The position numbers and the translations under genes are program-made. From the NCBI GenBank assembly GCA_963809565.1, contig CAWEKE010000001.1, forward strand, positions 239,452 through 303,451: DNA of 64,000 nucleotides, given 5' to 3'. Within the stretch, counting starts at the first letter, position 1, and every line of letters starts with the position of its first letter. The notes under the pieces are model-generated. The model was not told where the DNA came from. It searched no databases and was given only the letters and a program-made list of their open reading frames with translations. Positions 17,925 through 37,880 of this stretch are shown piece after piece. The DNA is from an uncultured Gammaproteobacteria bacterium (GTDB lineage: Bacteria; Pseudomonadota; Gammaproteobacteria; Steroidobacterales; XN24).

Positions 17925-19733
17925 TCAGACCAGGCCGTGGCTCCAGGGCTCGTTCAGGGCCTCGGCCAGCGGCTGCAGCCAACGCGAATAATTGCGCCAG
18001 CGGCCGACGCTGCTGGTGTAGATCGGCTGCCGTACCTGTTCGAAGCTGGCCGTGCGCACCAGCCGCGTGCTGCGATGGAAGTCGAGGCAGGCCTGATCCC
18101 ATGGCAGACCGTTGAACTCGATCAGGGCTCGGGCCTCGCGTGCCGGGTCTTCGATCAGTCGTTCGTAATCCAGCACGTAAATCGGGAGTGAAAGATGTTG
18201 CTGCCAGTGCTCCATCAGCCGCCAGCAACCCTGCTGCTGCAGGCCGATGTGGCGCAGGTCGCGCGCGAAATCCATGCCTTCGCTGCGAAAGTTCTGCTGG
18301 AAACAGGACAAACCGGTGTCCATCGGGTCACGCCGGCAATAGACCACCCGCGCACCCGGCAGCAGGACCTGGATCAGGCCGAGATTCAGGTAGTTGGCCG
18401 GCAACTTGTCGGTTATCCGCGCTGGCCCGCGATCCCAGCCCGGAGCGGTCCGCAGATACTCATTGGCCAGCCGTTCGAGCACCCCGGCTTCGACATGCTG
18501 CAGGCACTCCGGCCAGCGCGTGGCCACGTCGCCTTGGCTTAACCGGCGGGGCAAACGGTAAATATCCGTACGCTCGCCGCCGGCCCGGACCTGCGGATGA
18601 CTGGCCAATATCTGCTCCGCGAGCGACGTCCCCGAGCGGGGCATGCCGACAATGAACACCGGCGCCATCGAATCGACCCCGGATGACGGCATCTGCTGCA
18701 GCCGTTCAGCGGTAAAGAAGGCACACAGTCGTTCAACCGTCGTCCGGAAACCCTCCGGATCAAAACGGCTGGGCAGACAGTCGTTGGCGCGAACGAATTG
18801 CTCGAACGCTCCCGCGTAATCGCCGCTGGCGTCGAGCACCTCACCGAGGGTTGCGCTGATCGTTGCGCGGTCCTGATCGGAAGCATGGGTAGCGTCAAAC
18901 CGCTGCAGCAGCGCTTTGGCTTCGTCGCAACGATCCAGGCGGCGCAGCATCCTTCCGGCGGTAATCACTGCCCACGCGGGCGGCGCGGATGCCAGAACCG
19001 GCTTCAGCAGCTCCAGCACGGCTGCGTATTCGCGCTGTAATTCCAGGGTCCAGATCAGGCCGTGATGCGCCACTTCGTGGGTCGGATCGGACTCCAGCAC
19101 CTCGCGGAAGCAATCCGCGGCGGCAGCCTGATCGTCAAGCCGATGATAGACAAGGCCGAGCGCTGCGCGCGCATCATGATTATCCGGCGCACGCCCGATG
19201 CAACTCAGATAAGTTGCCCGGGCCTGCTCGAGGCAACCCTGTCCGCGCAATGCGTCTGCGTATTCGCGCAGGACTTCCGGATCTTCCGGCATGGCCTTGA
19301 GGACTGGCTCGAGCAGCTCGCCGGCCTCCTCCGCCCGACCCTGCAACAAGTATATTGTCGCCAGCAAACGCCGGCCGCGATGCGCCCGGGCCGAGCCCGC
19401 CGAGACCACAGCCATCGCCTGGCGACAGGCTCCGGCAGCATCTTCCAGCTTGCCCAGAGTGCGCTGCACGTGGGCCAGATTAAGCCATGGGTCGGGTGTA
19501 TCGGGATCCAGCTTCACCGCGGTAAGCAGCGCACGCTCTGCGTCCGGCAAGCGGCCGAGATTATTCAGCGCGCGGCCCAGCGCATTCCATGCCGATGCCA
19601 TCGCCGGGGCTGCCAACACCAGTTGCTGCAGGAGTTTTTCCGCCGCCGCCGGATCACGCTGCCGGATCAGCGCCTCCGCCTGGCTTAACTGTTCGGCCGC
19701 CGCCACGGTCGGTGCTCCATCGCCGTTGCTCAT
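17925..19733 (-). CDS. TPR repeat + TPST-like sulfotransferase fusion (ST8)
   Basis: 602 aa with TPRs. Motifs: FIVGMPRSGTSLAEQILASHPQVRAGGE, RVVYCRRDPMDTGLSCFQQNF, GLPWDQACLDFH, SFEQVRQPIYTSSVGRWRNY. Confidence 0.9.
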   Translation of the reverse strand: MSNGDGAPTVAAAEQLSQAEALIRQRDPAAAEKLLQQLVLAAPAMASAWNALGRALNNLGRLPDAERALLTAVKLDPDTPDPWLNLAHVQRTLGKLEDAAGACRQAMAVVSAGSARAHRGRRLLATIYLLQGRAEEAGELLEPVLKAMPEDPEVLREYADALRGQGCLEQARATYLSCIGRAPDNHDARAALGLVYHRLDDQAAAADCFREVLESDPTHEVAHHGLIWTLELQREYAAVLELLKPVLASAPPAWAVITAGRMLRRLDRCDEAKALLQRFDATHASDQDRATISATLGEVLDASGDYAGAFEQFVRANDCLPSRFDPEGFRTTVERLCAFFTAERLQQMPSSGVDSMAPVFIVGMPRSGTSLAEQILASHPQVRAGGERTDIYRLPRRLSQGDVATRWPECLQHVEAGVLERLANEYLRTAPGWDRGPARITDKLPANYLNLGLIQVLLPGARVVYCRRDPMDTGLSCFQQNFRSEGMDFARDLRHIGLQQQGCWRLMEHWQQHLSLPIYVLDYERLIEDPAREARALIEFNGLPWDQACLDFHRSTRLVRTASFEQVRQPIYTSSVGRWRNYSRWLQPLAEALNEPWSHGLV

Positions 19734-19814: not shown

Positions 19815-20432
19815 TCATCGCAGGGGATAAGAGAAGCGGAAATCGTCGTCAGGATCGCGGAAATTCACGTAGCTGGTAAGAATGTACTTGTCCCCGGATA
19901 CCGGCGCCTCGCCGACATGCTCATACATCCAGTAGGGAGGCATGATCACCAGCCTTCCGGTGCGCGCTGCGACCCGGGTCCCCAATATCGGAAACACCGT
20001 TTCACCGCCCTCATCCACGGTATTCAGGTACCACAAAAAGGCCACGGTTCGCACCGCAGACCGGTGATCGAACACATCCACATGCAACGGGAAGTGGTGC
20101 GGCTCATCACCGCCGGCCAGGTACTTCTTGACCTTCAGATGTTCAAACGCCCGCGGCGCCTTGCGCGCCAGCATTCCGGCTACCGGCAAGGTCGCGTACT
20201 CGGCCAGGTGGCGCACCATGTTTTCGATCAGCGCGCGCTCGACTTCACGCCATTTCGGATTCGGGTTGCGGGTGATCACATACTCGACCCAGGTTCGCTG
20301 CCGGGCGCGCTGGAACTGTTCAGCCGGATCGGCTTCGACCTGCTCGATAATGCGGGCGCACAGCTCCGGATCCAGCGCATCGTCATAGACCCTGATCAGT
20401 TCCGACAGGCGTGGGTCTGAGCTATCGTTCAT
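19815..20432 (-). CDS. 2OG-Fe(II) oxygenase, prolyl-4-hydroxylase-like (P4Hc type)
   Basis: Motifs HHFPLHVDVF (HxD), RTVAFLWYLNTVDEGGETVFP, ARTGRLVIMPP...YEHVGEAPVSGDKYILTSYVNF (distal His, G.KY..t.w). This is the classical P4H-type jelly-roll signature. Its start overlaps the ST9 stop by 11 nt. Confidence 0.85.
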   Translation of the reverse strand: MNDSSDPRLSELIRVYDDALDPELCARIIEQVEADPAEQFQRARQRTWVEYVITRNPNPKWREVERALIENMVRHLAEYATLPVAGMLARKAPRAFEHLKVKKYLAGGDEPHHFPLHVDVFDHRSAVRTVAFLWYLNTVDEGGETVFPILGTRVAARTGRLVIMPPYWMYEHVGEAPVSGDKYILTSYVNFRDPDDDFRFSYPLR

Positions 20433-22551
20433 AGCCGAAGTACTCGAGGTGGGGATCGAGAGCCGGCATCAGCGGCTCCATATAGTGAGCATATGCCTGC
20501 CACCGGCCTCGGGAGCGCTGGTAGAGCGCCTCGGTCACCTGATGATAACTGTTGGTATTGATGTGGCCACGCTGGCGTGCGCGCTCGGCATAGTCCAGGA
20601 CTCGGGGGTCCCACTCCAGACCGAGGAAGTCGAGCAGCTTGCGCGTCTCCGCTTCCAGGTCATCAATCAGGGACTCATAGCGCACCACGTGGACGTTCAG
20701 CGGCAGGCGCCGGTTGTATAACTGCCACAGGCGCATGGTCTTGTCGTAGATACGGGTCGAATCCTCCAGCGTATGGAAATTCGCGAAGGCGTCGCTGACC
20801 GTATAGTGCTGCATGAAGTTTGACAGCACCACATCGCAGGGATGGCGTTGGCAGAAGACGAAGCGCGCGTCCGGAAACAGACGCCAGAGCATCCCGACCT
20901 GAATGGTGCGGATCGGCATCTTGTCGACAATCAACGTGTCCGCGTGGCCAGCCATGAACGGATCGATTGCATCGAAATACAGCTTCCTCAGCCGGGCGAA
21001 CGTCTGCTCATCAAGCTGCGCCAGCGCGCGCGGGAAACCATCTGGCAACTCCTGCAGAGCCTCCAGCGCGGGCAGGATGGTGACCTGCTCTTCTACAGTG
21101 GTGATGCCCGGGTGACTATCGAGAACGACATCCGTCAGCGTCGTGCCCGAACGCGGGAATCCGAGCATGAACACCGGCGACGGGCGCTCGCAGCGCGGGG
21201 CCTCGGTCCACTCTTCCAGGCGGGTCGTGCTGAAAAACTCGTCCAATTCGTCAAGCAGGGCCAGAAACCGCTCCGGTCTTGCCTCCCGGGCCCGGGGGGT
21301 CGCCCGCGCCAGTTCATTGGCCGCGGTGAAATGTTCATAGGCTGCGTCCGCATTCCCGTGACGATCGTGCAGGTAACCAAGCTGGTAATGGAATTGCTCC
21401 GCCAGACGCGGATCCATCTTCGTGGTGTCGAAGCGCATCAGGCGCTGTAACCCCAGAGTCGGTTCACCGCGGCGACGATCGCCCTTGGCCGCTTCCAGAT
21501 TCAGTCGCGGGTGATCCGGCGCCAGTTGCAGGCCCTTTTCCACCATCTGATCAAGCTCTTCGAGCCTGTTTGCTTCCTCGTACAGCGCGGCCAGTTCTGC
21601 GTAGGCCGCGGGCGAGTGAGGGTCGAGTTCCAGCGCCCGCTTGAAGCTGGCCTCGGCCTCATCGCTGCGGCGCTGCTCATTGAGCACCAGGCCCAGGTTC
21701 AGGTGGACCGATGCATTGTCCGGATCCAGCTGCAGCGCGTGGCGGTAACAGATAGCGGACTTCTTGAAGTTGCGCCGCGTGTGATACGCAATACCCAGGT
21801 TGATCAGCGTTTCGGTGTGGCCGGGCTTAAGGCTCAGCGCATGCTCAAATTGCGCGATAGCTGCATCCACGTCGCCCTGACTCATCAGTACCGTGGCCAG
21901 ATTTCGCCTGGCTGAAGCGAAATCCGGGTCGATGGCCACCGCATGTTCAAACGCATCCCGGGCCTCGTCGAGTTCACCCATCGCGCGCAGGGCATGACCG
22001 AGGTGATCATAGGCAACCGCAAACTCCGGCCGGATCAAAACCGCGCGCCGGAACGCATCCGCCGCTTCCGCCAGACGCCCCATGTTGTTAAACGCGCGGC
22101 CAAGATTGTCATAGGCGCCCGCCAGATTGGGGTTGATTTCCAGCGCCTTGACGAAAAACGGAATCGCCTCCTCCGGTTTGCCCTGCCGCAGCAGGGTTTC
22201 ACCGAGATTGCTGTGCGCCATCGCGAACTCGGGCTGCAGCTGGATCGTCTGCTGATACATCGCCGCGGCGTCGTCCAGTCTGTCCCGCGCCTTCATCAGA
22301 TTACCCAGGCTGTTGATAAAGCTGGCTTTTAACGGATCGAGCTGGATCGCGCGCCGGATCAGTCGCTCGGCGTCTTCCAGCCGTCCCTGGCGGGCGTCGA
22401 TATTGCCCAGGCAATGCAGGGCATCCGCATGCGCCGGTTCGCGCTTGAGCACCTCCAGATACTGGGCCTTGGCCGACTCCAGATCACCCTCATGCTGGGT
22501 CTGCTGGGCCTGATGATAAAGCTCTGCCGTAGATAGGGACTGAGCAGCCAT
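20422..22551 (-). CDS. TPR repeat + TPST-like sulfotransferase fusion (ST9)
   Basis: Long TPR N-terminus. Motifs: FMLGFPRSGTTLTDVVLDSHPGITTVEE, RFVFCQRHPCDVVLSNFMQHY, GLEWDPRVLDY, SYHQVTEALYQRSRGRWQAY. Start chosen at ATG 22551 (GGAG about 12 nt upstream); the maximal ORF reaches 22608. Confidence 0.85.
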   Translation of the reverse strand: MAAQSLSTAELYHQAQQTQHEGDLESAKAQYLEVLKREPAHADALHCLGNIDARQGRLEDAERLIRRAIQLDPLKASFINSLGNLMKARDRLDDAAAMYQQTIQLQPEFAMAHSNLGETLLRQGKPEEAIPFFVKALEINPNLAGAYDNLGRAFNNMGRLAEAADAFRRAVLIRPEFAVAYDHLGHALRAMGELDEARDAFEHAVAIDPDFASARRNLATVLMSQGDVDAAIAQFEHALSLKPGHTETLINLGIAYHTRRNFKKSAICYRHALQLDPDNASVHLNLGLVLNEQRRSDEAEASFKRALELDPHSPAAYAELAALYEEANRLEELDQMVEKGLQLAPDHPRLNLEAAKGDRRRGEPTLGLQRLMRFDTTKMDPRLAEQFHYQLGYLHDRHGNADAAYEHFTAANELARATPRAREARPERFLALLDELDEFFSTTRLEEWTEAPRCERPSPVFMLGFPRSGTTLTDVVLDSHPGITTVEEQVTILPALEALQELPDGFPRALAQLDEQTFARLRKLYFDAIDPFMAGHADTLIVDKMPIRTIQVGMLWRLFPDARFVFCQRHPCDVVLSNFMQHYTVSDAFANFHTLEDSTRIYDKTMRLWQLYNRRLPLNVHVVRYESLIDDLEAETRKLLDFLGLEWDPRVLDYAERARQRGHINTNSYHQVTEALYQRSRGRWQAYAHYMEPLMPALDPHLEYFGYER

Positions 22552-22771
22552 AAGTGTTTGATTCTCCGCCTGATGCAGGCAAAACATATAATTATCCCCT
22601 TTTGCCACGCAGGCGCAAGAAAGGCCGGTGGACCGCAGCGGGACCGTCGTAACGGAACGTATCCGGCGAATCAGGGGTCGGGAAATCCAGCATGGCGGGT
22701 GACATCGGGCCCATGGGCGCGGTGCCCCGATTCTGCTACCGTGACGCGCAGTCGAAGTTCAGGACAACCGG

Positions 22772-23371: not shown

Positions 23372-23839
23372 TCAGCTGTCGGCCACCAGCGGACCTTCGG
23401 TGAGCTCCCAGATTTCTTCCCGCTCTACCAGGCCATAGAGCCCTTCTGCCTGACCGCGCAGGCCGGCCGCCACCTTCTGCCAGTCCACATCATCACCCGG
23501 CGATGCGTCGCCTTTGGAGCCGAGCTGTTCGAGGCGGGCGCTTTGCAGCTGCCATTTCATTACGAAATGACGCGCAGCGTCGCGCGCGGTATCCGCGACT
23601 TCCATATCGACATGATCCGAAGGGATATCTACCCCTGAAATCACCCAGTAGGCGCGGTTCCTGTTTGCCTGAGACCAGGCCTTGCCGATGAACAACTGGT
23701 GCGGCAGTGTCCACACGGCATGGCCGACGACTTCATCCTGGATCAGGTCGCTGTTGCGAACATGTTGCGCCATGTTCTGTAACTGTCCCTTTGCCCATTC
23801 GGCATAGGCCTGCAATTCCTGTTCGTTCCTGAATGCCAT
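23372..23839 (-). CDS. conserved hypothetical cytoplasmic protein (possibly DUF4826-like)
   Basis: 155-aa ORF with coding-like composition and no signal peptide. The family assignment is from memory only and is weak. Confidence 0.55.
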   Translation of the reverse strand: MAFRNEQELQAYAEWAKGQLQNMAQHVRNSDLIQDEVVGHAVWTLPHQLFIGKAWSQANRNRAYWVISGVDIPSDHVDMEVADTARDAARHFVMKWQLQSARLEQLGSKGDASPGDDVDWQKVAAGLRGQAEGLYGLVEREEIWELTEGPLVADS

Positions 23840-25690: not shown

Positions 25691-27574
25691 TCAGGTAGCC
25701 GGACGCCCGCCTCCGGGCGCCGCCTGCTCGATGACCAGTTCCTGGCCTGCCTCGATGCCCTCGAGGACCTGAACAGTCCCGTCTGGCCAGTGGATCTCGA
25801 GCCGCAGCGCCGATTGTGAGTCTCCGAGCCCAAAAGTCTGGACAAGTTCCGTCTGCGACAGATAACTCCGCGCGCTGTTTATCTGGCGCTCCTGAAGCCG
25901 CTCGCCCTCGGCCAGCACCAAGCGCGCACCGACAGCGCCGGTGTTCGGGGCTGTTCCGCGCAAGCGCACACGCAGCCATCGATGTCCCAGCACCTGATCA
26001 TTGCGCAACAGGTGCGGCGCGCCACCGACCTGGGTGATCACCACGTCAAGATCGCCATCGCTATCGATGTCTGCGTAGCTGGCGCCCCGGCCCACCATGG
26101 GTTGCGTCAGATCGCCAGTATTCGCAGCCGGCATTGGAATGAATTGCCGGTCGCAATCATATCCGCAATTCCAGAACAACTGTGCGGACTGGGCATGCTG
26201 CTGGCTGGGTTGAACACGGTTGATCTCATCCTCGACGTGACCGTTGGCCTGCAACAGATCCAGACGTCCGTCCAGATCGGCATCAAACAGGAACAGGCCG
26301 AAACTCAGCACGCTGCGGCTGGCCGGGCCGATACCGGTAACGATGGCTTCATCGTTGAACAACACGCTGCGCGCCGGATCGACAAAAAACGAGGTCATCT
26401 CGTTGGCGAAATTGCCCATCGCCACAGCATATTCGCCCTGATCGCCGATGCGGCCGCCGTCGATACCCATCGCGCCGGTGGCGCTGCCGGTGTTGTCAAA
26501 AGCCAGCCCGGCATTGACGCCCTGCTCCTCGAACTGTCCACCGACGTTGCGAAACAGGAAGTTACGCACGGTGTCGTTGGCCACTACCAGGTCCGTCCAG
26601 CCATCCAGATCCAGGTCCTCGGCCAACACCGCCAGGCCCTTGCCGACCGGGACGCCGGTATCGGCGTTGCGCACATGGATGCCGCTTCCGGCACCAAGCT
26701 CGGTGAATCGACCCTGGCCGTCATTGCGAAACAGATAGCTGTCGGTGCCGGCAAAATTCGTCGGCGGGCCATAGGCACGGCCAATCCCCGCGAGGCGATA
26801 GTCGACCTCGAAATCCAGTTCCCGCGACCACTGCACGTAATTCACCACGAACAGGTCCAGGTCACCGTCCCGGTCGTAATCAAGAAACGCCGCGCTGCTG
26901 CTCCAGGTGTCGGCACCGCCGGCGACGCCGGCTTTCGCGGTCACATCCTCGAAGCGGCCGTCGCCGAGATTCCGCAACAGCCGATTGGGGCCGACCGCGG
27001 TCAGGTAGACATCGACCCGGCCGTCGCCATCATAGTCGCCGGTGGCAATCCCCATCCCGTACAGCGGCTTGTCCAGGCCCGAGCCGGCAGTGACATTCTG
27101 AAATTGTCCCCCGCCGAGATTCCGATACAGCTCGGGCGTCGATGGCCGGTCTGAATCTTCCGACCAGGGCCAGGCAGTCGAGTTGACGAACAACAGATCG
27201 GGCAGATCGTCCTGGTCCAGCGAAAAGAACGCGACGCCACCACCCATGGTCTCGGGCAACAGCCGTTCGCCGGCAGCGCCGCTGTCATGGTGAAAACTGA
27301 TACCCGCAGCGCCGGTGATGTCGGTAAACGGGATCTGCGGAGCGTCCGGCTCAGCCACCGTGACCGCGGGTTTCGACAGGGCCTGCTCGTTCACCGGGGC
27401 CTGTTCGGCGGGCCGGCCGCGCCACCAGAGCATTGCCGATACCAGCGCGATGAAAACGACGATCGCGATCAGCGACCGGCGCAGTGCAACGCCGATGACT
27501 GCGTCATCCTGGACCAGATCCGTTTCCGGGTCCCGGTCATCGGTCAAGGCTGGCTCAACGGGTTCCTGTCTCAA
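25691..27574 (-). CDS. CRTAC1-family protein (FG-GAP/VCBS + ASPIC/UnbV), N-terminally membrane-anchored
   Basis: N-terminal TM segment (LIAIVVFIALVSAMLWW). FG-GAP loops: GDYDGDGRVDVYLT, LDYDRDGDLDLFVV, EDLDLDGWTDLVVA, FDADLDGRLDLLQA, ADIDSDGDLDVVIT. UnbV-like C-terminus (GARLVLAEGERLQERQINSARSYLSQTELVQTFGLG..LEIHWPDGTVQVL). ATG overlaps the upstream stop (27571-27574). Confidence 0.85.
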   Translation of the reverse strand: MRQEPVEPALTDDRDPETDLVQDDAVIGVALRRSLIAIVVFIALVSAMLWWRGRPAEQAPVNEQALSKPAVTVAEPDAPQIPFTDITGAAGISFHHDSGAAGERLLPETMGGGVAFFSLDQDDLPDLLFVNSTAWPWSEDSDRPSTPELYRNLGGGQFQNVTAGSGLDKPLYGMGIATGDYDGDGRVDVYLTAVGPNRLLRNLGDGRFEDVTAKAGVAGGADTWSSSAAFLDYDRDGDLDLFVVNYVQWSRELDFEVDYRLAGIGRAYGPPTNFAGTDSYLFRNDGQGRFTELGAGSGIHVRNADTGVPVGKGLAVLAEDLDLDGWTDLVVANDTVRNFLFRNVGGQFEEQGVNAGLAFDNTGSATGAMGIDGGRIGDQGEYAVAMGNFANEMTSFFVDPARSVLFNDEAIVTGIGPASRSVLSFGLFLFDADLDGRLDLLQANGHVEDEINRVQPSQQHAQSAQLFWNCGYDCDRQFIPMPAANTGDLTQPMVGRGASYADIDSDGDLDVVITQVGGAPHLLRNDQVLGHRWLRVRLRGTAPNTGAVGARLVLAEGERLQERQINSARSYLSQTELVQTFGLGDSQSALRLEIHWPDGTVQVLEGIEAGQELVIEQAAPGGGRPAT

Positions 27575-30384
27575 TCGCCTGTGATCCTCGAGATCTGTTC
27601 CTGAAGTCCATAGGCGCCAGCGCGCTGCAGATCGTAGATCACGACCGGCTCGGCGGCGTGGTTCGCCGCGTCATTGTTTCGGCGCGCCAGCGCAATCGCC
27701 CGGTCGCGGGCATTGTCGTCGGTTTTATAGCGCGCATGAAGCGCACGCTGGATCTCAGCTTGCTGCTCCTGCCCTGTGCGTGCATAGATCTGGGCCAGAC
27801 CCCAATGCGCCTCGGCATTCTCCGGATCCAGCTGCAGCACTCGTTGATAAGTTGCCACCGCTTCATCCAGCAACTGTTGCGCGCGCTCCGCGGCGGCGCT
27901 TCCGCGCAGTGCCCGCGCGCGCTCGAACAAGGTCCCGGCAAACTCATTCAGTGCCCGGTAATCACGGCTGAAATCCAGACCCCGCGCGCGCGCATCGACA
28001 AAACGCGTCTCCAGCACGCTGCGCATACCGTCGATAGCCTGGTCCAGATAGCCGTTCTGCCGATCCAGCAGTGCGGTAAACCAGGCCACGGTCCACGGGT
28101 ACGCCGGCGGATCAAAACCAATGGCCCGATCCAGCGCGGCGCGAGCATCATCCAGTCTGCCTTCTCGAAGGTAGACCCGGGCAAGATTCAGCGCTCCGTG
28201 AGACTGGCCCATGAACTCGACCGCGGCAAACGCCTCCTCCGCCTGGCGCAGTTCGCCGGTGCCGCGCTTGCGCAGCAAGCCGATACCGTAGTCGTTCAGC
28301 CGCTGCCACGCCGCTATATCGGGTGCGGGCTGTGCGGGCGGCGCTGGCCCGCCGGCAACCGGGAATACGATCTCATCGCTGGCAATTTCTACCACCGGCA
28401 GGTCATTGCGCCGGAATTCGTCACCCTGGAAGTACTGCAGATACGTCGTGTCGAATTTCCGATAGTTGAGGCGCGCTCTTACCACCACCGGCTCGCTCAC
28501 CCACGCGGGCACGGTCAGCCGATAATGCACCACATCGGCGGCGCCCGGCGGAATCTGGTTGTTGTACAGCGCGGTGAAAATGTCCTCGGCGTTGCGGCGA
28601 TCGATACGCCGGCCATCCCGGTCAACGACCCAGGAATTCACAAAATGAGACCAGGGATCGACCCGCCGCTGCTCAGGCTCCATGGCGCCGCTTCTGCCGA
28701 TCAGCGCGTCGCCGCTATAGACCTCGACGTCAACCCATATCTGGTTAGAGTCCGAGGTGCCCTGGGTAAACAGGTGACCCAGCGTCAGCGTCCGGATCAC
28801 AGTCTCCAGCAAGTAACTCTCACCAGGCACCAGCGCCGGCACCTGCGGCCGCAGCGGGGCATGCAGCGCGCCGTCGACACTGCCCCCTTGCTTCAGACCG
28901 ACAATGTCCAGGCGTAAGGAACCCTGGAGAAATTCGCGATGCGCCTCGATCACCGATTCCGGCAGCCCCAGAAGGTAAGGAATGGCAGTGTTGGCCGAGG
29001 GAAACTGGTGATCGTGGACCTGGAGCTCGCCGCTGTCGTCAAGCTGCCGCGCGCCAAAGTCATCGGAGACAAGGGCGGGCATATGGCAGCCGTTGCAATT
29101 TTCCTGCGCCCGCTCGGGGTAATAAAAGCTCTGTGTGCTGTGACCGGAGACGCCGCTGAGCAGGAAGCTGTCGTAGTGATTCTGTCCGCGCAGCCAGCGA
29201 TAGCCATTAAGGGCTTCCGGTAGCCCCACCTTGTGGCAAGTGCCACAAAATTCCGGGCTGCGATGCAGTGGCTTGAGGAAGGTCTTGCGGTGAAACTCCG
29301 GCTTGGCTTTGATCAGCGCCCGGTTTATCCATTGCAGGGCCGCATTTTCAGAATAGACAAACGGGTAATGCAGCGGCTCCTCGATGGTGTAATCCGCATT
29401 GCCGCGCGGACTGTTGATGTGGGTGATCGCATGGCAGCCGGTACAGGTGATGCCTGCCTGTGCGGTCGGATGGCCAACATCGTCGAATTCCGGGTCGTCG
29501 AAAGCGCCGGAGAAAAACGGCACCAGATCGTGACATCCGGCGCAAAAGCGCGAGGCTTGAACGTCGCCGTCGCGTTCCAGCATGGCCTGACGCGTGTTAC
29601 GTACCGAGAACAGGTAGGCAGGATTGTTAAACGACGCAAAGCGATGGACGCTGTGGGACCATCGTTGATGAATGTCGCCGTGGCATTCGGCACAATACTG
29701 ATCCTGCATCAGCGCCCGTGCCGGGATGAAATTGCCGCTGGCGGTACGCGCAAGAGAGGGCTGGAAGTACCGCTCTCCCGAGGCCGGTCCTGCCTGGTCC
29801 CAACGCCTTGGATCCTGTGCCTGGACGACGATCAACAGCGCAGAAAACAGCACTGCGACCAAGGCTACGGTCGCCCCTGCACGCCAGTTGATCGCACTCC
29901 CCGCCAGCCTGTGCAATACGAAAAGCCAGATCGCGGCCAGCGGCGTGATCACATGCAGCCAGTAAGCGAGGTTTCGCGCTGCCGGGGCACGCACCTCGAT
30001 CACCGGGATGCCGCGGGTCAGCACCAGTCCGCTGACTATCAGCAGCAATGCGACGCTGAACAAGGCATAGCCCACGGCCACGGCGCGACGGTTGGGCCGG
30101 TGGCGAGCTACCTTCAGGTGCAGGACCCCGTAGACGACCACCGGAAGCACCAGAATCAGCCCCAGCACCAGGTGTCCGAGAAACATCAGCTGGTAGAAAT
30201 ATCCCTGAAACGTCTCGCCACGCAGCCATTCCAGCAGCGTCACGCCGCCAAGATAGCCGGCATTGATAGTCAGCAGCGAAAACAGGCCGAAAACCACGTA
30301 GAGCAACTTGCGCAGACGCGGGCCCACGACCGGAACATATTTCCGTCGGCGTGCAGGTCCTGTTTGAGCTCGCTGGGTCATCAC
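27571..30384 (-). CDS. polytopic membrane domain + pentaheme c-type cytochrome + C-terminal TPR fusion protein
   Basis: About five N-terminal hydrophobic helices (several with His), then five CXXCH motifs (CAECH, CAGCH, CTGCH, CGTCH, CNGCH), then a TPR-like C-terminal third. Both ends overlap the neighbouring genes by 4 nt. Confidence 0.85.
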   Translation of the reverse strand: MMTQRAQTGPARRRKYVPVVGPRLRKLLYVVFGLFSLLTINAGYLGGVTLLEWLRGETFQGYFYQLMFLGHLVLGLILVLPVVVYGVLHLKVARHRPNRRAVAVGYALFSVALLLIVSGLVLTRGIPVIEVRAPAARNLAYWLHVITPLAAIWLFVLHRLAGSAINWRAGATVALVAVLFSALLIVVQAQDPRRWDQAGPASGERYFQPSLARTASGNFIPARALMQDQYCAECHGDIHQRWSHSVHRFASFNNPAYLFSVRNTRQAMLERDGDVQASRFCAGCHDLVPFFSGAFDDPEFDDVGHPTAQAGITCTGCHAITHINSPRGNADYTIEEPLHYPFVYSENAALQWINRALIKAKPEFHRKTFLKPLHRSPEFCGTCHKVGLPEALNGYRWLRGQNHYDSFLLSGVSGHSTQSFYYPERAQENCNGCHMPALVSDDFGARQLDDSGELQVHDHQFPSANTAIPYLLGLPESVIEAHREFLQGSLRLDIVGLKQGGSVDGALHAPLRPQVPALVPGESYLLETVIRTLTLGHLFTQGTSDSNQIWVDVEVYSGDALIGRSGAMEPEQRRVDPWSHFVNSWVVDRDGRRIDRRNAEDIFTALYNNQIPPGAADVVHYRLTVPAWVSEPVVVRARLNYRKFDTTYLQYFQGDEFRRNDLPVVEIASDEIVFPVAGGPAPPAQPAPDIAAWQRLNDYGIGLLRKRGTGELRQAEEAFAAVEFMGQSHGALNLARVYLREGRLDDARAALDRAIGFDPPAYPWTVAWFTALLDRQNGYLDQAIDGMRSVLETRFVDARARGLDFSRDYRALNEFAGTLFERARALRGSAAAERAQQLLDEAVATYQRVLQLDPENAEAHWGLAQIYARTGQEQQAEIQRALHARYKTDDNARDRAIALARRNNDAANHAAEPVVIYDLQRAGAYGLQEQISRITGD

Positions 30385-33300
30385 CGCGCAGATTGATAAC
30401 GGGTGTTGTACTGCTGGTGAAGTTCTTCCCGCCGCATCTCTGCGGCATCGTCTCCCAGAGCGCTGCGCGGCAACGGGCCCAGCTGCCCGCCGTCACGGGT
30501 AAACAGATCCATGTCCTTGGCCCAGCCCCGGGCTTCGAGCACGAACCTGCGCGTCCAGTCATGCGCCACTGCATCTGGTGCATTGAACTCAAGGTGCACC
30601 TCTTCACCGGAGCCGATAATCGCTACCGCATCGTCTGCCTGCTCAAGCAACGGTTCCACGGGGCCTGTCCGGGTGTAAAAGCCGTCGAGATAACGGGCGT
30701 CCCAGAACGCATCGCGCACCTGATAATCGTAATCAGGCACGCGCTGGGCTGCCGTAGTTCTTGTCGCAAAGCCGGTAATCGCCAGACGCGCGGCTGTCGG
30801 AGTCATCACTTGATGGACCATCGCCGGCGGCGCGTCTTCCTCGAATACGATACGAATACGATCCCAATACACTTCGAGATTGGTCGACAGGCGCAACGCA
30901 ACTGTCTTTGCTGGCAGGTCGCCCAGCGGCAGGGCCATCTCCCTCGGCATCCCGGCCGGATAGCCGAAGCCGGTGTAGACGCGATGCCAGACGCCATCGA
31001 CGCTCAGCGCATCCAGACTCGGGGCCTGGTAATCAGCGCCAGCCTGCCAGGCGGCAAACACGGTCTGCGAATACGGGTATTCGACCCAGCCATCGGCGAC
31101 CAACACCGGGCGACTGCCGGCCGGATTGATTTCACGGTCAAATTCGAGCAGCAAACGATGTTCCTGTTGCAGGCGGCCGATAAACCGATGATCGACCTCG
31201 CCCACCGGCGCCGCCACACGGTCAGCGGTCCTGACCGTGTCGAGGACGTCCTCACCGCCGGCATTGCTCGCGGATACCGGGCTGAGGCTGCGCTCGGGAC
31301 GGAAAAAGATCGGGCGGCCGGTGACCGCCGGACCGCCTGTGGCCATGCGCTCATCGACGGCCATGTCCCAGCCTGGCGGCAAATCGAACCCATGCAGCCG
31401 CACCACATCGAGATAAGCGCTCTCCTCCATCGGCTCCGCTATCTTCAGCGCGTAAACCCCTTCCTTTGGCACCAGGCTGCCTGCGGGCATCAGAAAATAC
31501 TCCCACGGTCGCGGCTCGGCATACTCTCCCGGCGCAACCAGAAAACCCAAACCTCCGACGCCGAGCACGTCGCTGACGAAGCCGTAATGCGTCCCGTTCC
31601 AGGCAAATATCACCGGACAGCTGGACAGCTGACGCTGGGTCTCGGCGATCCGGTGCAATTCGCCCTGAGCCAGAGACAATTCGGTCTGGAACACGCCGTC
31701 GGACCAGTCTATCGCCACATAGTCAGCGGCAGGCAATCCGGCCAGACCCATCAGCAAGGGCTGCAGACTTTGACCCGGCGCGGAATTGTGATCCAGCGTG
31801 GTGGTCATGGTCCAGCGATCGAGCAGGCGCAGGGACACCCGGGTGCCGATGCCGGAACGATTCGAACGCATGGAGTCGGCCTTGTCTTCCTTGCCGCTGA
31901 AGCTCAGGCCCAGAAACGGCAGGCGCCCGGGCCCCGGCGGCCAGCGTCTCAGGGCTTCTTCGGTCGGCGCTACGATTTCCGGGCCGGCCTGGATATCGGC
32001 ATTCAATATCAGCAGCGGCCCGGTCAGCCCGGCGCTGTCCTGCAATTGCAGCATGCCGCCGGCATGGTGGCGGATCGAAACGCCGGCGCTGCTGGCGATG
32101 ACAAGTTTCAGACTGCCGTCACCGTCAAAATCGGAGACCGCAAGCTGCGGCTTACTGCCGGCAACGGTGTCCAGTGTATCCAGGGACCAGGACCCCGGAC
32201 GCCAGCTCCAGCGCAACAAGCGTCCGTCTTCGTCCACTGCGTAGATCTCGGGGCGGCCATCGCTGTCCAGGTCGGCGATGGCCGCGGCCTGCAGCGATGC
32301 CTGGCGAAAACTGTCCAGCCCGGTCGCCCGGCGATATTCCCAGAGCCGGTCGTTGATCCAGATATCATTGCCGCCGCCTTCGTTCACCACAATCAGGTCG
32401 AGATCCCGGTCCAGGTCCAGATCAGCGGCGAGAAACTGGCGGCCGGCACCAGCACCGGCGATCCCCTGGCTGGCCCCGAGGCGACGAAAACTGCCGTTGC
32501 CGTTGTTGCTGAACAGCTCGTCCGGCCCATCCGCATTGACCACGAATATGTCGAGATCGCCGTCATGATCTGCATCGATCATGCCGCCATCCACACAGTC
32601 TCCGGCATCATCCGTCGCGGTGTCCGCGCCACGCTCGCGCCACTCGCCCCGGTCCGCGCCCAGCCATAGCTGGTTAGGTCCCTTCCGGCACAGATACAGA
32701 TCCAGATCGCCATCGTTGTCGACATCGCCCCACAATGCGGCGGTGGCGTTGCGGATTCCGGCCAGCGGATGATCCGCGAGATCCGCAAAGCGCCCGTCCG
32801 CCTGGCCGATGATCACGCGCGTGCCGACGGTCGTGGCGGCAAAGATGTCGAGGACGGTATCGGCATCGATGTCGGCAGCCGTCAGCGACAAGACCTGGCC
32901 GCTGATGTCGGCTGCGAGCGGCACCGCCTGCGCGAACAGCGGGCCGGGCGGAAGCGTCGCCGGTTCTATCCGCTCGCGACCCACTGCAAGCGCCTCGGCC
33001 TTGGGACCCAGTTTCGTGTATTTGAACTCGGCCAGACGCGCCCGCGGATTGTCCGCAAATCGCTCGTAAACGGCGAGCATGTCCCGGGCCTCCTGCGGCT
33101 GTCCCGTCCGGCGCAGCACCAGGGCAGCACCGTAGTAGGCGCTGCGCAGATACGGATCCAGATCGATGGCGCGACGGTACCAGTCCAGAGCGCCTTCCAT
33201 GTCGCCCTGCTGCAGCAACGCCTGGCCGGAGAAATATGCGGCATAGGCATCCTCCGGATCGCCCGCGGTCACGACATTCAAGTGCTCCAGCGCCGCGGCC

Positions 33301-33671
33301 GTGTCGCCCAGATACAGTCGCAGCAGACCGGTAATGTAATTGGCACGCAGATCATCCGGTTCCGCTGCCAGCACCGTGGCAACGATGTCCAGTGCGCGTT
33401 GTTCATCACCCTCCTGCTGGCGATTCAGCGTAGCGATGGCGAGATTAAGACGCGCATCACGCCAGTCCGGATTTCTTTGCGCAACTTGCTCAAACGTATC
33501 TCGGGCCGCCGCATAGTCGAAATTACCCATCAGCGCGACGCCGCGATTATTGGCTGCGATGTCCGCTGCGCTGATGTCGTCATCAGCCCTTTCGCAACCA
33601 GTGCCTGAGAGCAAACTCAGCAGGACCGGTATCGCCCACAGCGGGCCGGACATTCCTCTTGCTGCGGTCAT
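30381..33671 (-). CDS. large secreted (possibly lipoprotein) TPR + FG-GAP/VCBS + UnbV-like protein with a long uncharacterised C-terminal region
   Basis: Signal peptide with a possible lipobox (LLSLLSGTGC). N-terminal TPRs. FG-GAP loops: GDVDNDGDLDLYLC, IDADHDGDLDIFVV, ADLDLDRDLDLIVV, ADLDSDGRPEIYAV, SDFDGDGSLKLVIA. UnbV-like segment (GIGTRVSLRLLDRWTMTTTLDHNSAPGQS). I recognise no family in the final ~450 aa. Confidence 0.8.
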   Translation of the reverse strand: MTAARGMSGPLWAIPVLLSLLSGTGCERADDDISAADIAANNRGVALMGNFDYAAARDTFEQVAQRNPDWRDARLNLAIATLNRQQEGDEQRALDIVATVLAAEPDDLRANYITGLLRLYLGDTAAALEHLNVVTAGDPEDAYAAYFSGQALLQQGDMEGALDWYRRAIDLDPYLRSAYYGAALVLRRTGQPQEARDMLAVYERFADNPRARLAEFKYTKLGPKAEALAVGRERIEPATLPPGPLFAQAVPLAADISGQVLSLTAADIDADTVLDIFAATTVGTRVIIGQADGRFADLADHPLAGIRNATAALWGDVDNDGDLDLYLCRKGPNQLWLGADRGEWRERGADTATDDAGDCVDGGMIDADHDGDLDIFVVNADGPDELFSNNGNGSFRRLGASQGIAGAGAGRQFLAADLDLDRDLDLIVVNEGGGNDIWINDRLWEYRRATGLDSFRQASLQAAAIADLDSDGRPEIYAVDEDGRLLRWSWRPGSWSLDTLDTVAGSKPQLAVSDFDGDGSLKLVIASSAGVSIRHHAGGMLQLQDSAGLTGPLLILNADIQAGPEIVAPTEEALRRWPPGPGRLPFLGLSFSGKEDKADSMRSNRSGIGTRVSLRLLDRWTMTTTLDHNSAPGQSLQPLLMGLAGLPAADYVAIDWSDGVFQTELSLAQGELHRIAETQRQLSSCPVIFAWNGTHYGFVSDVLGVGGLGFLVAPGEYAEPRPWEYFLMPAGSLVPKEGVYALKIAEPMEESAYLDVVRLHGFDLPPGWDMAVDERMATGGPAVTGRPIFFRPERSLSPVSASNAGGEDVLDTVRTADRVAAPVGEVDHRFIGRLQQEHRLLLEFDREINPAGSRPVLVADGWVEYPYSQTVFAAWQAGADYQAPSLDALSVDGVWHRVYTGFGYPAGMPREMALPLGDLPAKTVALRLSTNLEVYWDRIRIVFEEDAPPAMVHQVMTPTAARLAITGFATRTTAAQRVPDYDYQVRDAFWDARYLDGFYTRTGPVEPLLEQADDAVAIIGSGEEVHLEFNAPDAVAHDWTRRFVLEARGWAKDMDLFTRDGGQLGPLPRSALGDDAAEMRREELHQQYNTRYQSAR

Positions 33672-34666
33672 TTCGCATCTCCGCGCAGCGCTTTCTTGGC
33701 CCGCGCAATACGCTGCTCGAGCGAGGCAATGTCGATCTCGCCGGGATCAGCCGGCGCCAGGCGGCGGGTTTGCAGGTAAGTATAAAGCTCTGAGCGCAAA
33801 TGGGCGCGCATGTCATGACCCCGGCGGCGTTCACGTTCCTGGCGCAGGCGTCCGATGTCTATCGGCGCCACCACGACTTTCTCACCCGGACCGGGCTCGG
33901 CCTGGGCCAGAATGCGCCCGTCATAGTCGACAACCATGCTCGCTCCCGGCCAGCTGAACGGGGGATAGTTGCTCATCGCCGCCCCCTGGTTGGCGGCTAC
34001 GACATAAGCGGTGTTTTCCAGTGCCCGGGTACGATTGATCAGGGTCCACCAGTCCATCGGTTCGCTCGCGCCCCAGGGATCCATGTAGGCCGAGATGCGC
34101 ACCAGGATCTCGGCCCCGCGGAAGCTCAATTCGCGGATGGTCTCCGGGAACAACCAGTCATAACAGGTCGCGACCGCGATTTTACCCAACTCGGTATCGG
34201 CCACCGGAAACGGATCCGGCTGATAGTCCGGGATGTCGTGCGGACTGGCATGCACTTCCCAGGGAATCCACGGATTGACCTTGCGGTATTTGCTCAGCAC
34301 GCCATCGGCTCCGATCAGCACCGTGGTATTGAACACATGCTCGGGATAATCCGGGTCGCTTTCCAGGAACGAACCAGTCTGGATATAGCAGCCGAACTGG
34401 CGCGCGAGCGCTGCGTACCGCTCGGTGAACTCGTTGGGTACAGGCAGCGCCAGCTTGCGACGCAATTCGCCGACACTCTGATAGATCGGCACGGCATGCG
34501 CGAACTCCGGGAATGCCAGCAGTCTGACATCGAAAAACGGCTCGTAGCCGACGACAGTCTGGGCGACCATTTCACACATTCGCTCGACCCGGGAGGAGAT
34601 TTCTTCGCGGGTCTGCGCTGCGGGGAAATCGGTCTGACAGGCTGCAGCGTAAAACAAGTTACTCAT
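33668..34666 (-). CDS. carbon-nitrogen hydrolase (nitrilase superfamily, amidase-like)
   Basis: Glu-Lys-Cys triad contexts: LLAFPEFA, SKYRKVNPW, KIAVATCYDWLFPE. Start chosen at ATG 34666 (MSNLFYAAACQ..). The stop overlaps the start of the downstream gene by 4 nt. Confidence 0.85.
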   Translation of the reverse strand: MSNLFYAAACQTDFPAAQTREEISSRVERMCEMVAQTVVGYEPFFDVRLLAFPEFAHAVPIYQSVGELRRKLALPVPNEFTERYAALARQFGCYIQTGSFLESDPDYPEHVFNTTVLIGADGVLSKYRKVNPWIPWEVHASPHDIPDYQPDPFPVADTELGKIAVATCYDWLFPETIRELSFRGAEILVRISAYMDPWGASEPMDWWTLINRTRALENTAYVVAANQGAAMSNYPPFSWPGASMVVDYDGRILAQAEPGPGEKVVVAPIDIGRLRQERERRRGHDMRAHLRSELYTYLQTRRLAPADPGEIDIASLEQRIARAKKALRGDAK

Positions 34667-34810
34667 CTGTCTTTTTGACCCCGGTTGGCAACAGCGGCAG
34701 GCGGCGGATGCGTAAGACTGAATTTGTATTCTAAACGTTGCGTCGCCGCAGGCGCAGCGGGAGCGGCGCATGGCGATGCGGAAGTCTTTGTACTATAGTC
34801 TTGAGCTGAA

Positions 34811-35660: not shown

Positions 35661-37880
35661 TCAGAATGGCCGCCCGAGAATCAGGTACGCAGAAGAATGG
35701 CCGCCCTCGGCAGTGCCTGCACCAAGATACAGAGGACCGATGAACGAATCCACGCCGAGGAACAGACTGCCCGCGCCTCGCATGTTGGCCAGATTCAGAT
35801 TATTGGTGGCGTCCCCGTATTCGAGTGATCCGCCGACAAACACTGGCAATAGCGCCGAATCGTTGATCCGCCGGTAATAGATGATTTCCGCCAGCGCGAA
35901 TGCTTCACCGGAAAGCGCGTTGTTCTCGAAACCGGACAGGTTCAGGAACCCGCCGCCGCGGTACAGCGCATAGATCGGCGGATCCCCCCTGACGGTTTGC
36001 TCGAAACGAAGCTGAGGCAGGAGCGTGTTGCGGCCCCAGGTAAACGCACGTCTGAATTCCGCCCGTACCTGATCAAAACCCGAATCCTCGCCGAGTTCGG
36101 ACCGATGCACCGTGTAACGCACTACTCCGCTGTAGCCCCGGGTGGGGAAATTCACGTTGTTCAGACGATCGACGCTGAACTGGAGAAACACAGAGCCGGA
36201 GTTGAAGTCCTGGGTCGGCAGTGTTGCGGGATCGCCGACCCGTCGGCTGGCATTGACCCAGCGACGCGTGTAGCCGACCCTGACCTCGCCATAGGTGGAT
36301 AGTTCGCGTCCTCCCGCAAGTTCCAGCTGCCAGTTAGTCAGCCGGTATTCGCCGATCTTGTCGTCGGCATTGTCATCAAAGATATTGATGCTGCTCTTGC
36401 CGAAAGATACGGAAGGATTGATGAAGTAACGCAGGTCCCGGTCCAGCGGCTGGTACCACTCCGTCCCGAGGCCGGGGTCCTGACCGATCCCGCCAAAACT
36501 GCGCCACTCCGCACCGAGTCGGTTGAGGCCGGTCCTCAGATATGCCACTCGCAGGTTGTACTGGTTGTCGCCCTCGAAATCGTCTTCCAGCTGCAGGCCG
36601 AATTGCAGGTAGTCCGGGCCCCAGGGCTTGGCGCTGCCTTCCACCACCACACCGCTGCGACCGTCCTCCTGGACAATTTCGTAAGAGACTTTTTCGAATA
36701 CGTCGAGGCCATAGATGCGACCAACATCCCGATCCAGCTTGTCAGCGTCCAGGGGCTCGCCGATACGCTGCCGGATCATGCCCGAGAGCAGCCCCGGATC
36801 CAGCCCGGCGTTATTCTCCACCCGGATGAACTCCACGACCGGCACCCCCGCCGGTCGGCTGGCCCGCCGCGCCAGCCACTGCTGATATTCGTCCTCCGGC
36901 ACCGACAGGGCACTGAGCTGCTCACGCAGCCTTGAGGCCGCCTCGTAACCAGCCGGCACCGCTTCGATGGCGCGGTCGAAGTCGGTGGAGCCGATATCAC
37001 CCAGGTCCGGGATGATCTGGATATCCCGCTCGTCCAGCGTCGCCAGCTGGGCCTCGGTATTTCCGCGGGTCATGATGTTGATCAGCTGGTCAGTGATGCT
37101 GATCAGCGAATCGACCTCCTGAGGATCACGCAATGGCGTGCTGATATCGACGACGATCAGGATTTCGGCACCCATGTCTCGCGCCACGTTGACCGGCAGG
37201 TTGTTGGTGACACCACCATCGACCAGCAGGCGGCCATCCAGCTTGAGCGGAGCGATGGCCCCGGGAACCGACATACTCGCGCGCATCGCGTCCGCCAGGT
37301 TGCCGTTGCCGATGACGTAGGTGGTGCCCGCACCGATGTCAGTGGTCACCGCGCGGAAGGGGATGGGCAGGCGATCAAAATCCGATACTCCGGATACCGG
37401 CAGGGTCAGGTCGCGCAACAACAATCCTATCTTCTGTCCCTGGATCAATCCGGCCGGCAGCTCCAGTTCGGCTCCGCGCAGATCGACTCCGGGCTTCGCC
37501 TTGACCGGCAGCAAGCGATCATCGCCCTTACGTCTGAAGCTCCGATCCTTACGCTCCTCACGATCGTCCAGGACTGCTTCCCAATCTATCGCCTGCAGCG
37601 CGGCCAGGATTTCTGCGGGACTCATGCCTGACGCGTAAAGCCCGCCGGCGGTCGCCCCCATACTGGTCCCGGCGATGTAATCAATCGGCACCCGCATTTC
37701 CTCCAGGACCTGCAACACGCCCACATGCGCGCCGCCGCGGGCGCCGCCGCCGCTGAGTACCAGACCTACTGTAGGTCGCGCCGGCTGTTCTGCGCTGTCT
37801 GGCGTGTCGGCGCCAGCTGGTGGGGCCAGAACAAGACTGAACATCAGGATTGCCCGGATATGAGTTCGCAGGAACATCAC
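35661..37880 (-). CDS. patatin-like phospholipase with POTRA/Omp85-type C-terminal beta-barrel (PlpD-like, type Vd secretion architecture)
   Basis: Signal peptide. Patatin motifs: LVLSGGGARGGAHVGVL (oxyanion), GTSMGA (GxSxG), DGGVTNNLP (DGG). The C-terminal ~400 aa are beta-strand-rich and end in ..YLILGRPF (terminal aromatic). Confidence 0.9.
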   Translation of the reverse strand: MMFLRTHIRAILMFSLVLAPPAGADTPDSAEQPARPTVGLVLSGGGARGGAHVGVLQVLEEMRVPIDYIAGTSMGATAGGLYASGMSPAEILAALQAIDWEAVLDDREERKDRSFRRKGDDRLLPVKAKPGVDLRGAELELPAGLIQGQKIGLLLRDLTLPVSGVSDFDRLPIPFRAVTTDIGAGTTYVIGNGNLADAMRASMSVPGAIAPLKLDGRLLVDGGVTNNLPVNVARDMGAEILIVVDISTPLRDPQEVDSLISITDQLINIMTRGNTEAQLATLDERDIQIIPDLGDIGSTDFDRAIEAVPAGYEAASRLREQLSALSVPEDEYQQWLARRASRPAGVPVVEFIRVENNAGLDPGLLSGMIRQRIGEPLDADKLDRDVGRIYGLDVFEKVSYEIVQEDGRSGVVVEGSAKPWGPDYLQFGLQLEDDFEGDNQYNLRVAYLRTGLNRLGAEWRSFGGIGQDPGLGTEWYQPLDRDLRYFINPSVSFGKSSINIFDDNADDKIGEYRLTNWQLELAGGRELSTYGEVRVGYTRRWVNASRRVGDPATLPTQDFNSGSVFLQFSVDRLNNVNFPTRGYSGVVRYTVHRSELGEDSGFDQVRAEFRRAFTWGRNTLLPQLRFEQTVRGDPPIYALYRGGGFLNLSGFENNALSGEAFALAEIIYYRRINDSALLPVFVGGSLEYGDATNNLNLANMRGAGSLFLGVDSFIGPLYLGAGTAEGGHSSAYLILGRPF

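Follow-up and report, generated by a model that had tools for sequence, protein, structure and literature searches.

Which function can be assigned to a protein that combines a polytopic membrane domain, five c-type heme motifs and a tetratricopeptide repeat (TPR) tail in one chain? This question is raised by a gene at positions 27571..30384 on the minus strand of a 64,000-nucleotide stretch of DNA (hereafter the window) from an uncultured Gammaproteobacteria bacterium (assembly GCA_963809565.1, contig CAWEKE010000001.1). An earlier note on this DNA had regarded the gene product as a possible self-contained conduit from the quinol pool through b-type and c-type hemes, with the TPR part serving as docking platform for a neighbouring protein. 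Our analysis supports this proposal in part; it is favoured by apparent bis-His sites in the membrane, periplasmic c-hemes, the integrity of the gene and a conserved CRTAC1-like partner. The protein is composed of known modules in a new order, namely a diheme b bundle (very probably), a pentaheme cytochrome of the PHC family with its immunoglobulin (Ig)-like domain, and TPRs, and it is accompanied by the conserved CRTAC1-like protein. Collectively, we consider it probable, with moderate confidence, that the gene encodes a single-polypeptide membrane-integral b/c cytochrome, which is linked to the quinone pool and works together with a propeller partner. Herein, b-heme binding, the quinone link and the contact between TPR and propeller are the parts that we infer.

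An intact gene of a large family

The open reading frame (ORF), supported by the ORF call and by full-length homologues, starts with GTG, is intact and encodes 937 amino acids (aa). Its start overlaps the stop codon of the upstream gene by 4 nt, and its own stop overlaps the start of the downstream gene also by 4 nt. The five hydrophobic helices with histidines, the five CXXCH motifs and the TPR tail described in the earlier note were all recovered by hydropathy, motif counts, Pfam and AlphaFold2. However, the view of a three-part protein needs correction, because a fourth part, an Ig-like beta-sandwich (aa ~441-690), is situated between the heme cap and the TPRs. All ten Cys residues of the protein (10/10) are found inside the five CXXCH motifs; by chance, only ~0.004 matches to C..CH would be expected (arithmetic from 10 Cys, 31 His and 937 aa).

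The possibility that two or three genes were wrongly joined during assembly or annotation, which the earlier note had named as a threat to its reading, has a negligible likelihood. Collinear full-length homologues exist in the complete genomes NZ_CP036434 and NZ_CP036526 as well as in ~60 metagenome-assembled genomes, and the order of the parts is identical in 80/80 aligned representatives. Moreover, contigs from independent sediment DNA runs span the membrane/heme, the Ig/TPR and the cytochrome/CRTAC1 gene junctions with zero indels or joints, and metatranscriptome contigs from an estuary, belonging to a relative of ~90-95% identity, also cross these junctions without indels. Hence, a mis-join or frameshift was rejected and the sequence is regarded as one gene. 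The same estuary contigs demonstrate natural transcription of the cytochrome gene, which apparently includes its CRTAC1-like neighbour. Two plus-strand ORFs overlapping the gene (27658-28917, 419 aa; 29233-30396, 387 aa) represent shadow ORFs typical of high-GC DNA and not genes.

Protein searches retrieved full-length relatives of 904-982 aa with 62-92% identity. When one genome per species was scanned, 74 loci with the same architecture were found, nearly all of them collinear over residues ~10-927. The full-length form is present in more than 60 genomes, which represent at least six phyla. The carriers belong to Gammaproteobacteria, Planctomycetota, Acidobacteriota/Thermoanaerobaculia, Verrucomicrobiota, Myxococcota and others, and include the cultured planctomycetes Saltatorellus ferox Poly30, Stieleria marina K23_9 and Alienimonas chondri. 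Searching with the non-TPR part (aa 1-700) after 50% clustering gave 2912 representatives at E<=0.001, of which 660 reached E<=1e-30; among the representatives of at least 640 aa, most have retained roughly five helices and five CXXCH motifs, together with a tail of ~480-530 aa. Conservation is reported below for a close set of 63 orthologues from at least six phyla and for a distant set of 80 representatives, which reaches down to ~33% identity. The homologues in databases number thousands and are labelled 'multiheme c-type cytochrome' or 'TPR repeat protein', while no description of this cytochrome family was found in the literature; mentions of TPR and pentaheme proteins from Tenderiales turned out to be unrelated. 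The earlier note was aware of no described cytochrome with a TPR tail. This holds in the sense that no paper was found, but such proteins are not rare, and the gene in the window does not stand out within its family, which is large and uncharacterised.

The pentaheme cap and the Ig-like domain

The attachment of c-type hemes requires a periplasmic location. The topology was deduced from the positive-inside rule, counting the last 15 residues before helix 1 and the loops between helices 2-3 and 4-5 as inside, and the loops between helices 1-2 and 3-4 as outside. The mean number of Lys and Arg residues is 14.1 inside versus 3.6 outside, and the inside value is higher in 52/52 orthologues. This charge bias indicates a cytoplasmic N-terminus, so that helix 5 exports the remainder of the protein and the CXXCH region is placed in the periplasm. 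A cytoplasmic position of the hemes, which according to the earlier note would have spoken against a conduit, is thus contradicted in all 52 sequences.

The pentaheme c-type cap comprises aa 226-440 (29065..29709, minus strand), as defined by the motifs, by Pfam Cytochrome_C554 and by a profile match to the structure 5ZE8. The motifs, all read on the minus strand, are CAECH (from aa 231; 29680-29694), CAGCH (aa 281; 29530-29544), CTGCH (aa 314; 29431-29445), CGTCH (aa 380; 29233-29247) and CNGCH (aa 430; 29083-29097), and they are 100% conserved in the 63 orthologues and in the 80 distant representatives. Pfam assigns aa 231-318 to Cytochrome_C554 (PF13435) with 29.3 bits at a cut-off of 20.8. 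The cap is followed by the Ig-like beta-sandwich at aa 441-690 (28315..29064, minus strand), for which AlphaFold2 predicts strands at aa 437-675. In Foldseek, the full-length model gave TPR matches only; therefore, aa 1-690 were modelled separately (predicted local distance difference test, pLDDT, 74.6). This model matched 5ZE8 with an E value of 1e-9 and a TMt of 0.57 over 501 columns, which span the heme cap and the Ig-like domain and take in 5ZE8 as a whole, followed by generic Ig-like sandwiches of the RhoGDI/Wzt type. A sequence profile of aa 200-690 found 5ZE8 (E 3.9e-5), the Geobacter selenoprotein MccSep (ExtKL; E 0.012) and c554 (E 0.21), covering hemes 1-3 only.

These findings, i.e. 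five CXXCH motifs in an alpha-helical cap, an Ig-like sandwich directly thereafter and detectable sequence homology, identify the c-heme part as a pentaheme module of the c552/ExtKL/MccSep type. In contrast, the NapC/NirT family, which the earlier note had offered as a candidate, was not confirmed: the NapC, NirT and NrfH models gave no significant match (the NCBIfam NrfH model scored E 0.52 and 10.4 bits versus 134), nor did the DmsE decaheme model. The PHC family includes c552 of Thermochromatium tepidum, whose role is unknown, ExtKL, Gsu2801 and cable-bacterial pentaheme cytochromes (sPHC/lPHC; PMC11976967), and a related protein, PtdA, has also been described (bioRxiv 10.1101/2023.11.21.568154). 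The arrangement of five CXXCH motifs in an alpha-helical cap before an Ig-like beta-sandwich is shared with T. tepidum c552 (5ZE8) and ExtKL/MccSep (9WT8), and the sequence CHM at heme 5 is shared as well. However, the known members of the PHC family are soluble or periplasmic, without a membrane b-domain and without TPRs.

MccSep is a polysulfide reductase, in which heme 2 has a distal Cys and a selenocysteine (Sec) on a loop of the Ig domain completes the active site (bioRxiv 10.1101/2025.11.18.688581). This raises the question whether the periplasmic module of the new protein performs catalysis itself instead of only conducting electrons, with a heme 2 active site that would be closed by the Ig-domain loop G536-H537...D545...W550. 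In this case, the active site would be supplied or drained by the membrane b-hemes from the quinone pool, with an accessory role for the CRTAC1-like and TPR parts. By analogy, the loop G536-H537-x-F-T-Q-G542-T543-x-D545-S-N-x-x-W550 (28735..28779, minus strand), which is a candidate for lining a heme pocket or providing a distal ligand, might correspond to the Sec-bearing active-site loop of MccSep. Besides the shared fold family, whose member MccSep uses heme 2 for catalysis, several features fit such a function. First, G536, H537, G542, D545 and W550 are each at least 95% conserved among the distant representatives, and the loop is as conserved as the heme motifs. Second, it is modelled with low confidence, as often observed for heme-contacting loops modelled without heme, and the AlphaFold2 models contain no heme. 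Third, among the His residues outside the motifs only H247, H365, H459 and H537 are 100% conserved in the distant set (H374 69%, H403 44%); with these four candidate distal ligands, as judged from sequence conservation, for five hemes, one heme may have no constant distal ligand in some family members. On the other side, MccSep chemistry is absent: the heme-ligating Cys239 and the Sec325 of MccSep have no counterpart, neither a distal Cys at heme 2 nor a catalytic Sec/Cys on the Ig loop was found, and the lack of any spare Cys outside the CXXCH motifs means that the protein is not a MccSep-type polysulfide reductase. Furthermore, H247, H365, H374 and H459 are invariant and H403 is 97% conserved in the close orthologues, and these five cap histidines are enough for five bis-His hemes. 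We therefore regard a catalytic module as unlikely.

The membrane domain and its histidines

The N-terminal membrane domain (aa 22-189; 29818..30321, minus strand) is defined by hydropathy, AlphaFold2 helices and the positive-inside rule, with the N-terminus in the cytoplasm and the C-terminal end in the periplasm. Hydrophobic segments at aa ~27-52, 62-90, 101-123, 139-160 and 170-190 correspond to AlphaFold2 helices at 22-55, 62-93, 99-122, 134-160 and 167-189. The histidines highlighted in the earlier note are H71 and H89 on helix 2 as well as H144 and H158 on helix 4, all encoded on the minus strand. His71 (30172..30174) and His144 (29953..29955) are positioned on the periplasmic side, 9-10 residues from the periplasmic ends of their helices according to the AlphaFold2 helix coordinates, and are proposed as ligands of an outer b-heme. 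His89 (30118..30120) and His158 (29911..29913), the latter followed by Arg159 in most sequences, lie near the cytoplasmic ends and are proposed to hold an inner b-heme.

All four residues are invariant in the 63 orthologues. In the distant set, H71 is 100% and H144 99% conserved, while H89 and H158 are both present in 64 sequences, both absent in 13 and mixed in only three. The joint retention or loss of H89 and H158 is as expected for ligands of the same heme. Four conserved His in two pairs at two depths are the general signature of transmembrane diheme cytochromes b, and their positions in the predicted model conform to a transmembrane stack of two bis-His hemes. Hence, the suggestion of heme-ligating His residues in the membrane gained weight from both conservation and paired loss, and the N-terminal domain is very probably a diheme b-type domain, which stands outside any curated family. 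Sub-threshold Pfam matches of some members to Ni_hydr_CYTB and DUF4405 were also counted for this assignment, and a weak hhalign match aligns H144 and H158 with His155 and His169 of Escherichia coli FdnI, with equal spacing of 14 residues. In FdnI (1KQF), these two residues are the heme ligands on helix 4.

Several results weigh against a b-type domain. None of the sequence matches in Pfam, NCBIfam or PDB reveals what the membrane domain is, and its profile had no meaningful match among PDB sequences. The Pfam matches of 52 membrane domains are all below the gathering scores and scattered over DUF7139 (20/52), DUF2231 (14), DUF4405 (7) and Ni_hydr_CYTB (3). The protein from the window itself does not match Ni_hydr_CYTB (PF01292); the best of the three matching orthologues reached E 1.3e-4, and a near full-length match of one member scored 15.1 bits at a cut-off of 30.1. 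In addition, hhalign gave ~1% probability for E. coli FdnI and HyaC, so the FdnI alignment was used only for the coincidence of His positions, and no membrane cytochrome b appeared among the top 50 Foldseek matches of the aa 1-690 model. Finally, the His pattern, two on helix 2 and two on helix 4 with spacings of 18 and 14, differs from that of FdnI/HydC. Filing the domain in any Pfam family was rejected, because only sub-threshold, scattered matches were obtained.

Could the domain then be a heme-free polytopic anchor, or resemble a sensor or transporter, which tethers a pentaheme cytochrome fed by other carriers? It would explain why no database model recognises it as cytochrome b and why the relatives P0219, P0220, P0240, P0257 and P0260 manage without it, having a signal peptide or a single anchor only. 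Such an anchor, however, has no need for five helices conserved at ~52% identity across phyla. It also leaves unexplained the four invariant His at two matched membrane depths on two helices, the loss of the inner pair only together and the conserved Arg159 beside H158. A heme-free anchor is, thus, very improbable.

In this regard, the distant set also suggests a subfamily with a single b-heme, in which H71 and H144 are kept and the inner pair is missing (13/80; P0148, P0149, P0166, P0209, P0218, P0226, P0245, P0250-P0253, P0266 and P0268).

The TPR tail and the CRTAC1-like partner

The C-terminal part forms a TPR solenoid (aa 691-912; 27649..28314, minus strand). TPR_11 (50.3 bits) and TPR_19 (49.6 bits) match above their cut-offs at aa ~730-880, as does TPR_16, and AlphaFold2 models helical repeats at 692-910. 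The full-length model has a predicted template modelling score (pTM) of 0.80 with pLDDT >90 through most of the Ig-like and TPR parts, and its Foldseek matches include MamA, OGT and consensus TPR (CTPR) proteins. The solenoid is followed by a tail of aa 913-937, in which V915, Y917, D918 and L919 are conserved and which, including the stop codon, occupies 27571..27648 (minus strand; defined by conservation and AlphaFold2).

The gene directly downstream, translationally coupled to the cytochrome gene, encodes a CRTAC1-like protein (25691..27574, minus strand) with an N-terminal membrane anchor, an FG-GAP calcium propeller and an UnbV_ASPIC domain, as judged from Pfam, the anchor and homology to human CRTAC1 (9ETN; E 1.8e-19). 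Its DxDxDG calcium motifs are conserved, and it has a single invariant His. A CRTAC1-like gene is found directly downstream on the same strand in 53/61 loci with enough flank (87%). When the 39 long loci are considered, no neighbour except this gene (35/39) is strongly conserved; the next most frequent one encodes a TPR and FG-GAP lipoprotein (15/39). The earlier mention of a CRTAC1 neighbour as possible partner is thereby supported by gene order, and the conserved synteny makes the idea of TPR docking reasonable. The frequent third gene, located upstream in 15/52 loci, is represented in the window by 30381..33671 (minus strand), which is translationally coupled to the cytochrome gene and encodes a lipoprotein of 1096 aa with N-terminal TPRs, an FG-GAP propeller (both from Pfam) and a lipobox-like sequence LLSGTGC. 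Altogether, the window contains four instances of TPRs being either fused to FG-GAP/CRTAC1 modules or encoded next to them, including the fusion in the 1096-aa protein. This adjacency supports a partnership of TPR and propeller, although it is not proof.

Three observations argue against the propeller as redox partner or TPR client. No redox motifs were found in the CRTAC1-like protein, which has no CXXCH and mostly calcium-binding motifs; no CRTAC1-like gene is situated directly downstream in 8/61 loci; and the TPR tail resembles the other TPR proteins of the window only generically. Instead of docking the CRTAC1-like protein, the tail could bind its own C-terminal end, serve oligomerisation, contact the outer membrane or peptidoglycan, or participate in heme attachment like NrfG/CcmI. 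The conserved C-terminal strand and helix after the TPRs could be such a self-ligand, and the rigid, high-confidence packing of Ig-like domain and TPRs may point to a structural role. For heme attachment, the evidence is a weak match to TPR_CcmH_CycH (PF23914; NrfG/CcmI-type) with 21.8 bits, well below the cut-off of 42. The loci without the downstream gene also fit a non-docking tail. Against it stand the synteny in 87% of the loci across phyla, the repeated joining of TPR and FG-GAP/CRTAC1 modules in the window and the retention of the TPRs in relatives without the membrane domain. Overall, we judge a tail that does not dock the CRTAC1-like protein as rather unlikely.

The loci without a downstream partner gene are L007, L033, L036, L043 and four shorter ones; L007 has CRTAC1-like and FG-GAP genes upstream. 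A Rosetta-stone fusion scan of the longer relatives revealed an FG-GAP repeat after the TPRs in P0143 only. This N-terminally truncated database representative has the order cytochrome, Ig, TPR and FG-GAP and could be a natural fusion or a read-through gene call. Upstream of the TPR and FG-GAP lipoprotein, a coupled gene for a CN-hydrolase was detected (33668-34771, minus strand; formamidase/aliphatic amidase-like, below the NCBIfam cut-offs), and CN-hydrolase genes occur near the cytochrome gene across several phyla (L007, L050, L052, L054, L057 and L066). In non-anammox bacteria, an FG-GAP gene of the 'CRTAC1 family' is also located within gene clusters of hydrazine-synthase homologues (PMC12758564), which represents a second, independent association of CRTAC1-like propellers with c-heme proteins.

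Proposed mechanism and comparison with known systems

In the b/c cytochrome that we favour, the five helices would span the inner membrane with the N-terminus inside, and helices 2 and 4 would hold two b-hemes linked to the quinone pool, one ligated by H71/H144 near the periplasmic face and the other by H89/H158 near the cytoplasmic face. Helix 5 would take the chain to the periplasm, where the pentaheme cap with its Ig-like domain of the T. tepidum c552/ExtKL/MccSep type would lengthen the heme chain, such that electrons could move between quinone pool and periplasm via two b-hemes and then five c-hemes. Two b-hemes stacked in this way would, like those of FdnI or CbcL, entail movement of charge across the membrane. 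In ~1/6 of the distant representatives, the inner His pair is lost; the central part of the device would then consist of the outer heme together with its connection to the c-hemes. The rigid TPR solenoid may hold the membrane-anchored CRTAC1-like calcium propeller, its most likely client, which in turn may supply the binding site for a periplasmic substrate or surface.

The closest precedent is CbcL from Geobacter sulfurreducens, in which a diheme cytochrome b is fused to a nine-heme cytochrome c, a linkage called unique by its authors (bioRxiv 10.1101/2022.08.31.506072). No single polypeptide other than CbcL has been described in which a membrane cytochrome b is fused to a multiheme cytochrome c. 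Both proteins combine a transmembrane b-type domain (here deduced from the His pattern) and a periplasmic multiheme c domain in a single chain without FeS, flavin or molybdenum subunits. By description, on which this comparison is based, CbcL differs by nine c-hemes, an FdnI/HydC-like 'three-helix' His motif and the lack of any described TPR or Ig part. The protein from the window has five c-hemes of another fold family and the 2+2 His pattern. Moreover, its b-domain is N-terminal, whereas that of CbcL is probably C-terminal, judging from reported point mutations.

Similarities to two other groups are more limited. The membrane domain would resemble FdnI and HyaC (PF01292) in being a bundle of helices that holds a transmembrane stack of two hemes, and in bearing two His at a distance of 14 residues on the last helix with ligands. 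However, the FdnI/HydC ligands are distributed over helices 1, 2 and 4 (one, one and two, respectively), whereas our protein has none on helix 1, two on helix 2 and an extra fifth helix. The inner-membrane-anchored multiheme cytochromes c of the NapC/NirT/NrfH/CymA and TorC type would be functionally alike, as they join the quinone pool to periplasmic partners, but they possess one anchor helix instead of five, lack a b-heme and carry their four or five hemes in a different fold.

It is further conceivable, as a tentative extension in which we have limited confidence, that the cytochrome and its CRTAC1-like neighbour, often with the TPR and FG-GAP lipoprotein, constitute an unrecognised quinone-linked periplasmic redox complex with a reaction not yet assigned to any enzyme. 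This might, for example, be redox chemistry on a substrate held by the calcium propeller, catalysed at a c-heme that the invariant His537 loop closes off. Such a complex would be spread over at least six phyla, mostly among aerobic bacteria from sediment, soil and marine habitats.

Other genes in the window

Eight paralogous genes for TPR and Sulfotransfer_3 proteins (594-728 aa) are found at 1927-22608 on the minus strand, like the cytochrome operon. Six of them form an uninterrupted tandem (1927-13297), which is separated from the other two (17925-19733 and 20422-22608) by a TPR/CRTAC1-like gene pair and one unassigned stretch. Several of these genes are translationally coupled, and part of the array is shared by the loci L001 and L002. 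The interposed pair (13318-16757, minus strand) comprises another TPR-only gene (550 aa), to which another CRTAC1-like gene with FG-GAP and UnbV_ASPIC domains (596 aa) is coupled; the product of the latter is 36% identical to the CRTAC1-like partner of the cytochrome. A DUF4826 protein of 155 aa without Cys is encoded at 23372-23839 (minus strand) between the TPR_562 and TPR-sulfotransferase genes and is conserved in L001 and L002. Finally, in the product of a gene at 35661-37880 (minus strand; 739 aa, with signal peptide), a patatin-like phospholipase is joined to an Omp85-type barrel. This protein resembles outer-membrane lipases of the PlpD type and is kept upstream only in the closest gammaproteobacterial relatives.

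Implications

The family would represent a second, independently built single-chain fusion of b- and c-type cytochromes and would be far more widespread than CbcL. It would tie the enigmatic pentaheme fold of c552 and ExtKL directly to the membrane. Moreover, it offers a testable partner for the bacterial CRTAC1-like propellers, and if the cytochrome and propeller do form a periplasmic redox complex, this would be the first function for bacterial proteins of the CRTAC1 family. The occurrence of the gene pair in cultured planctomycetes makes genetics and biochemistry on this system feasible.

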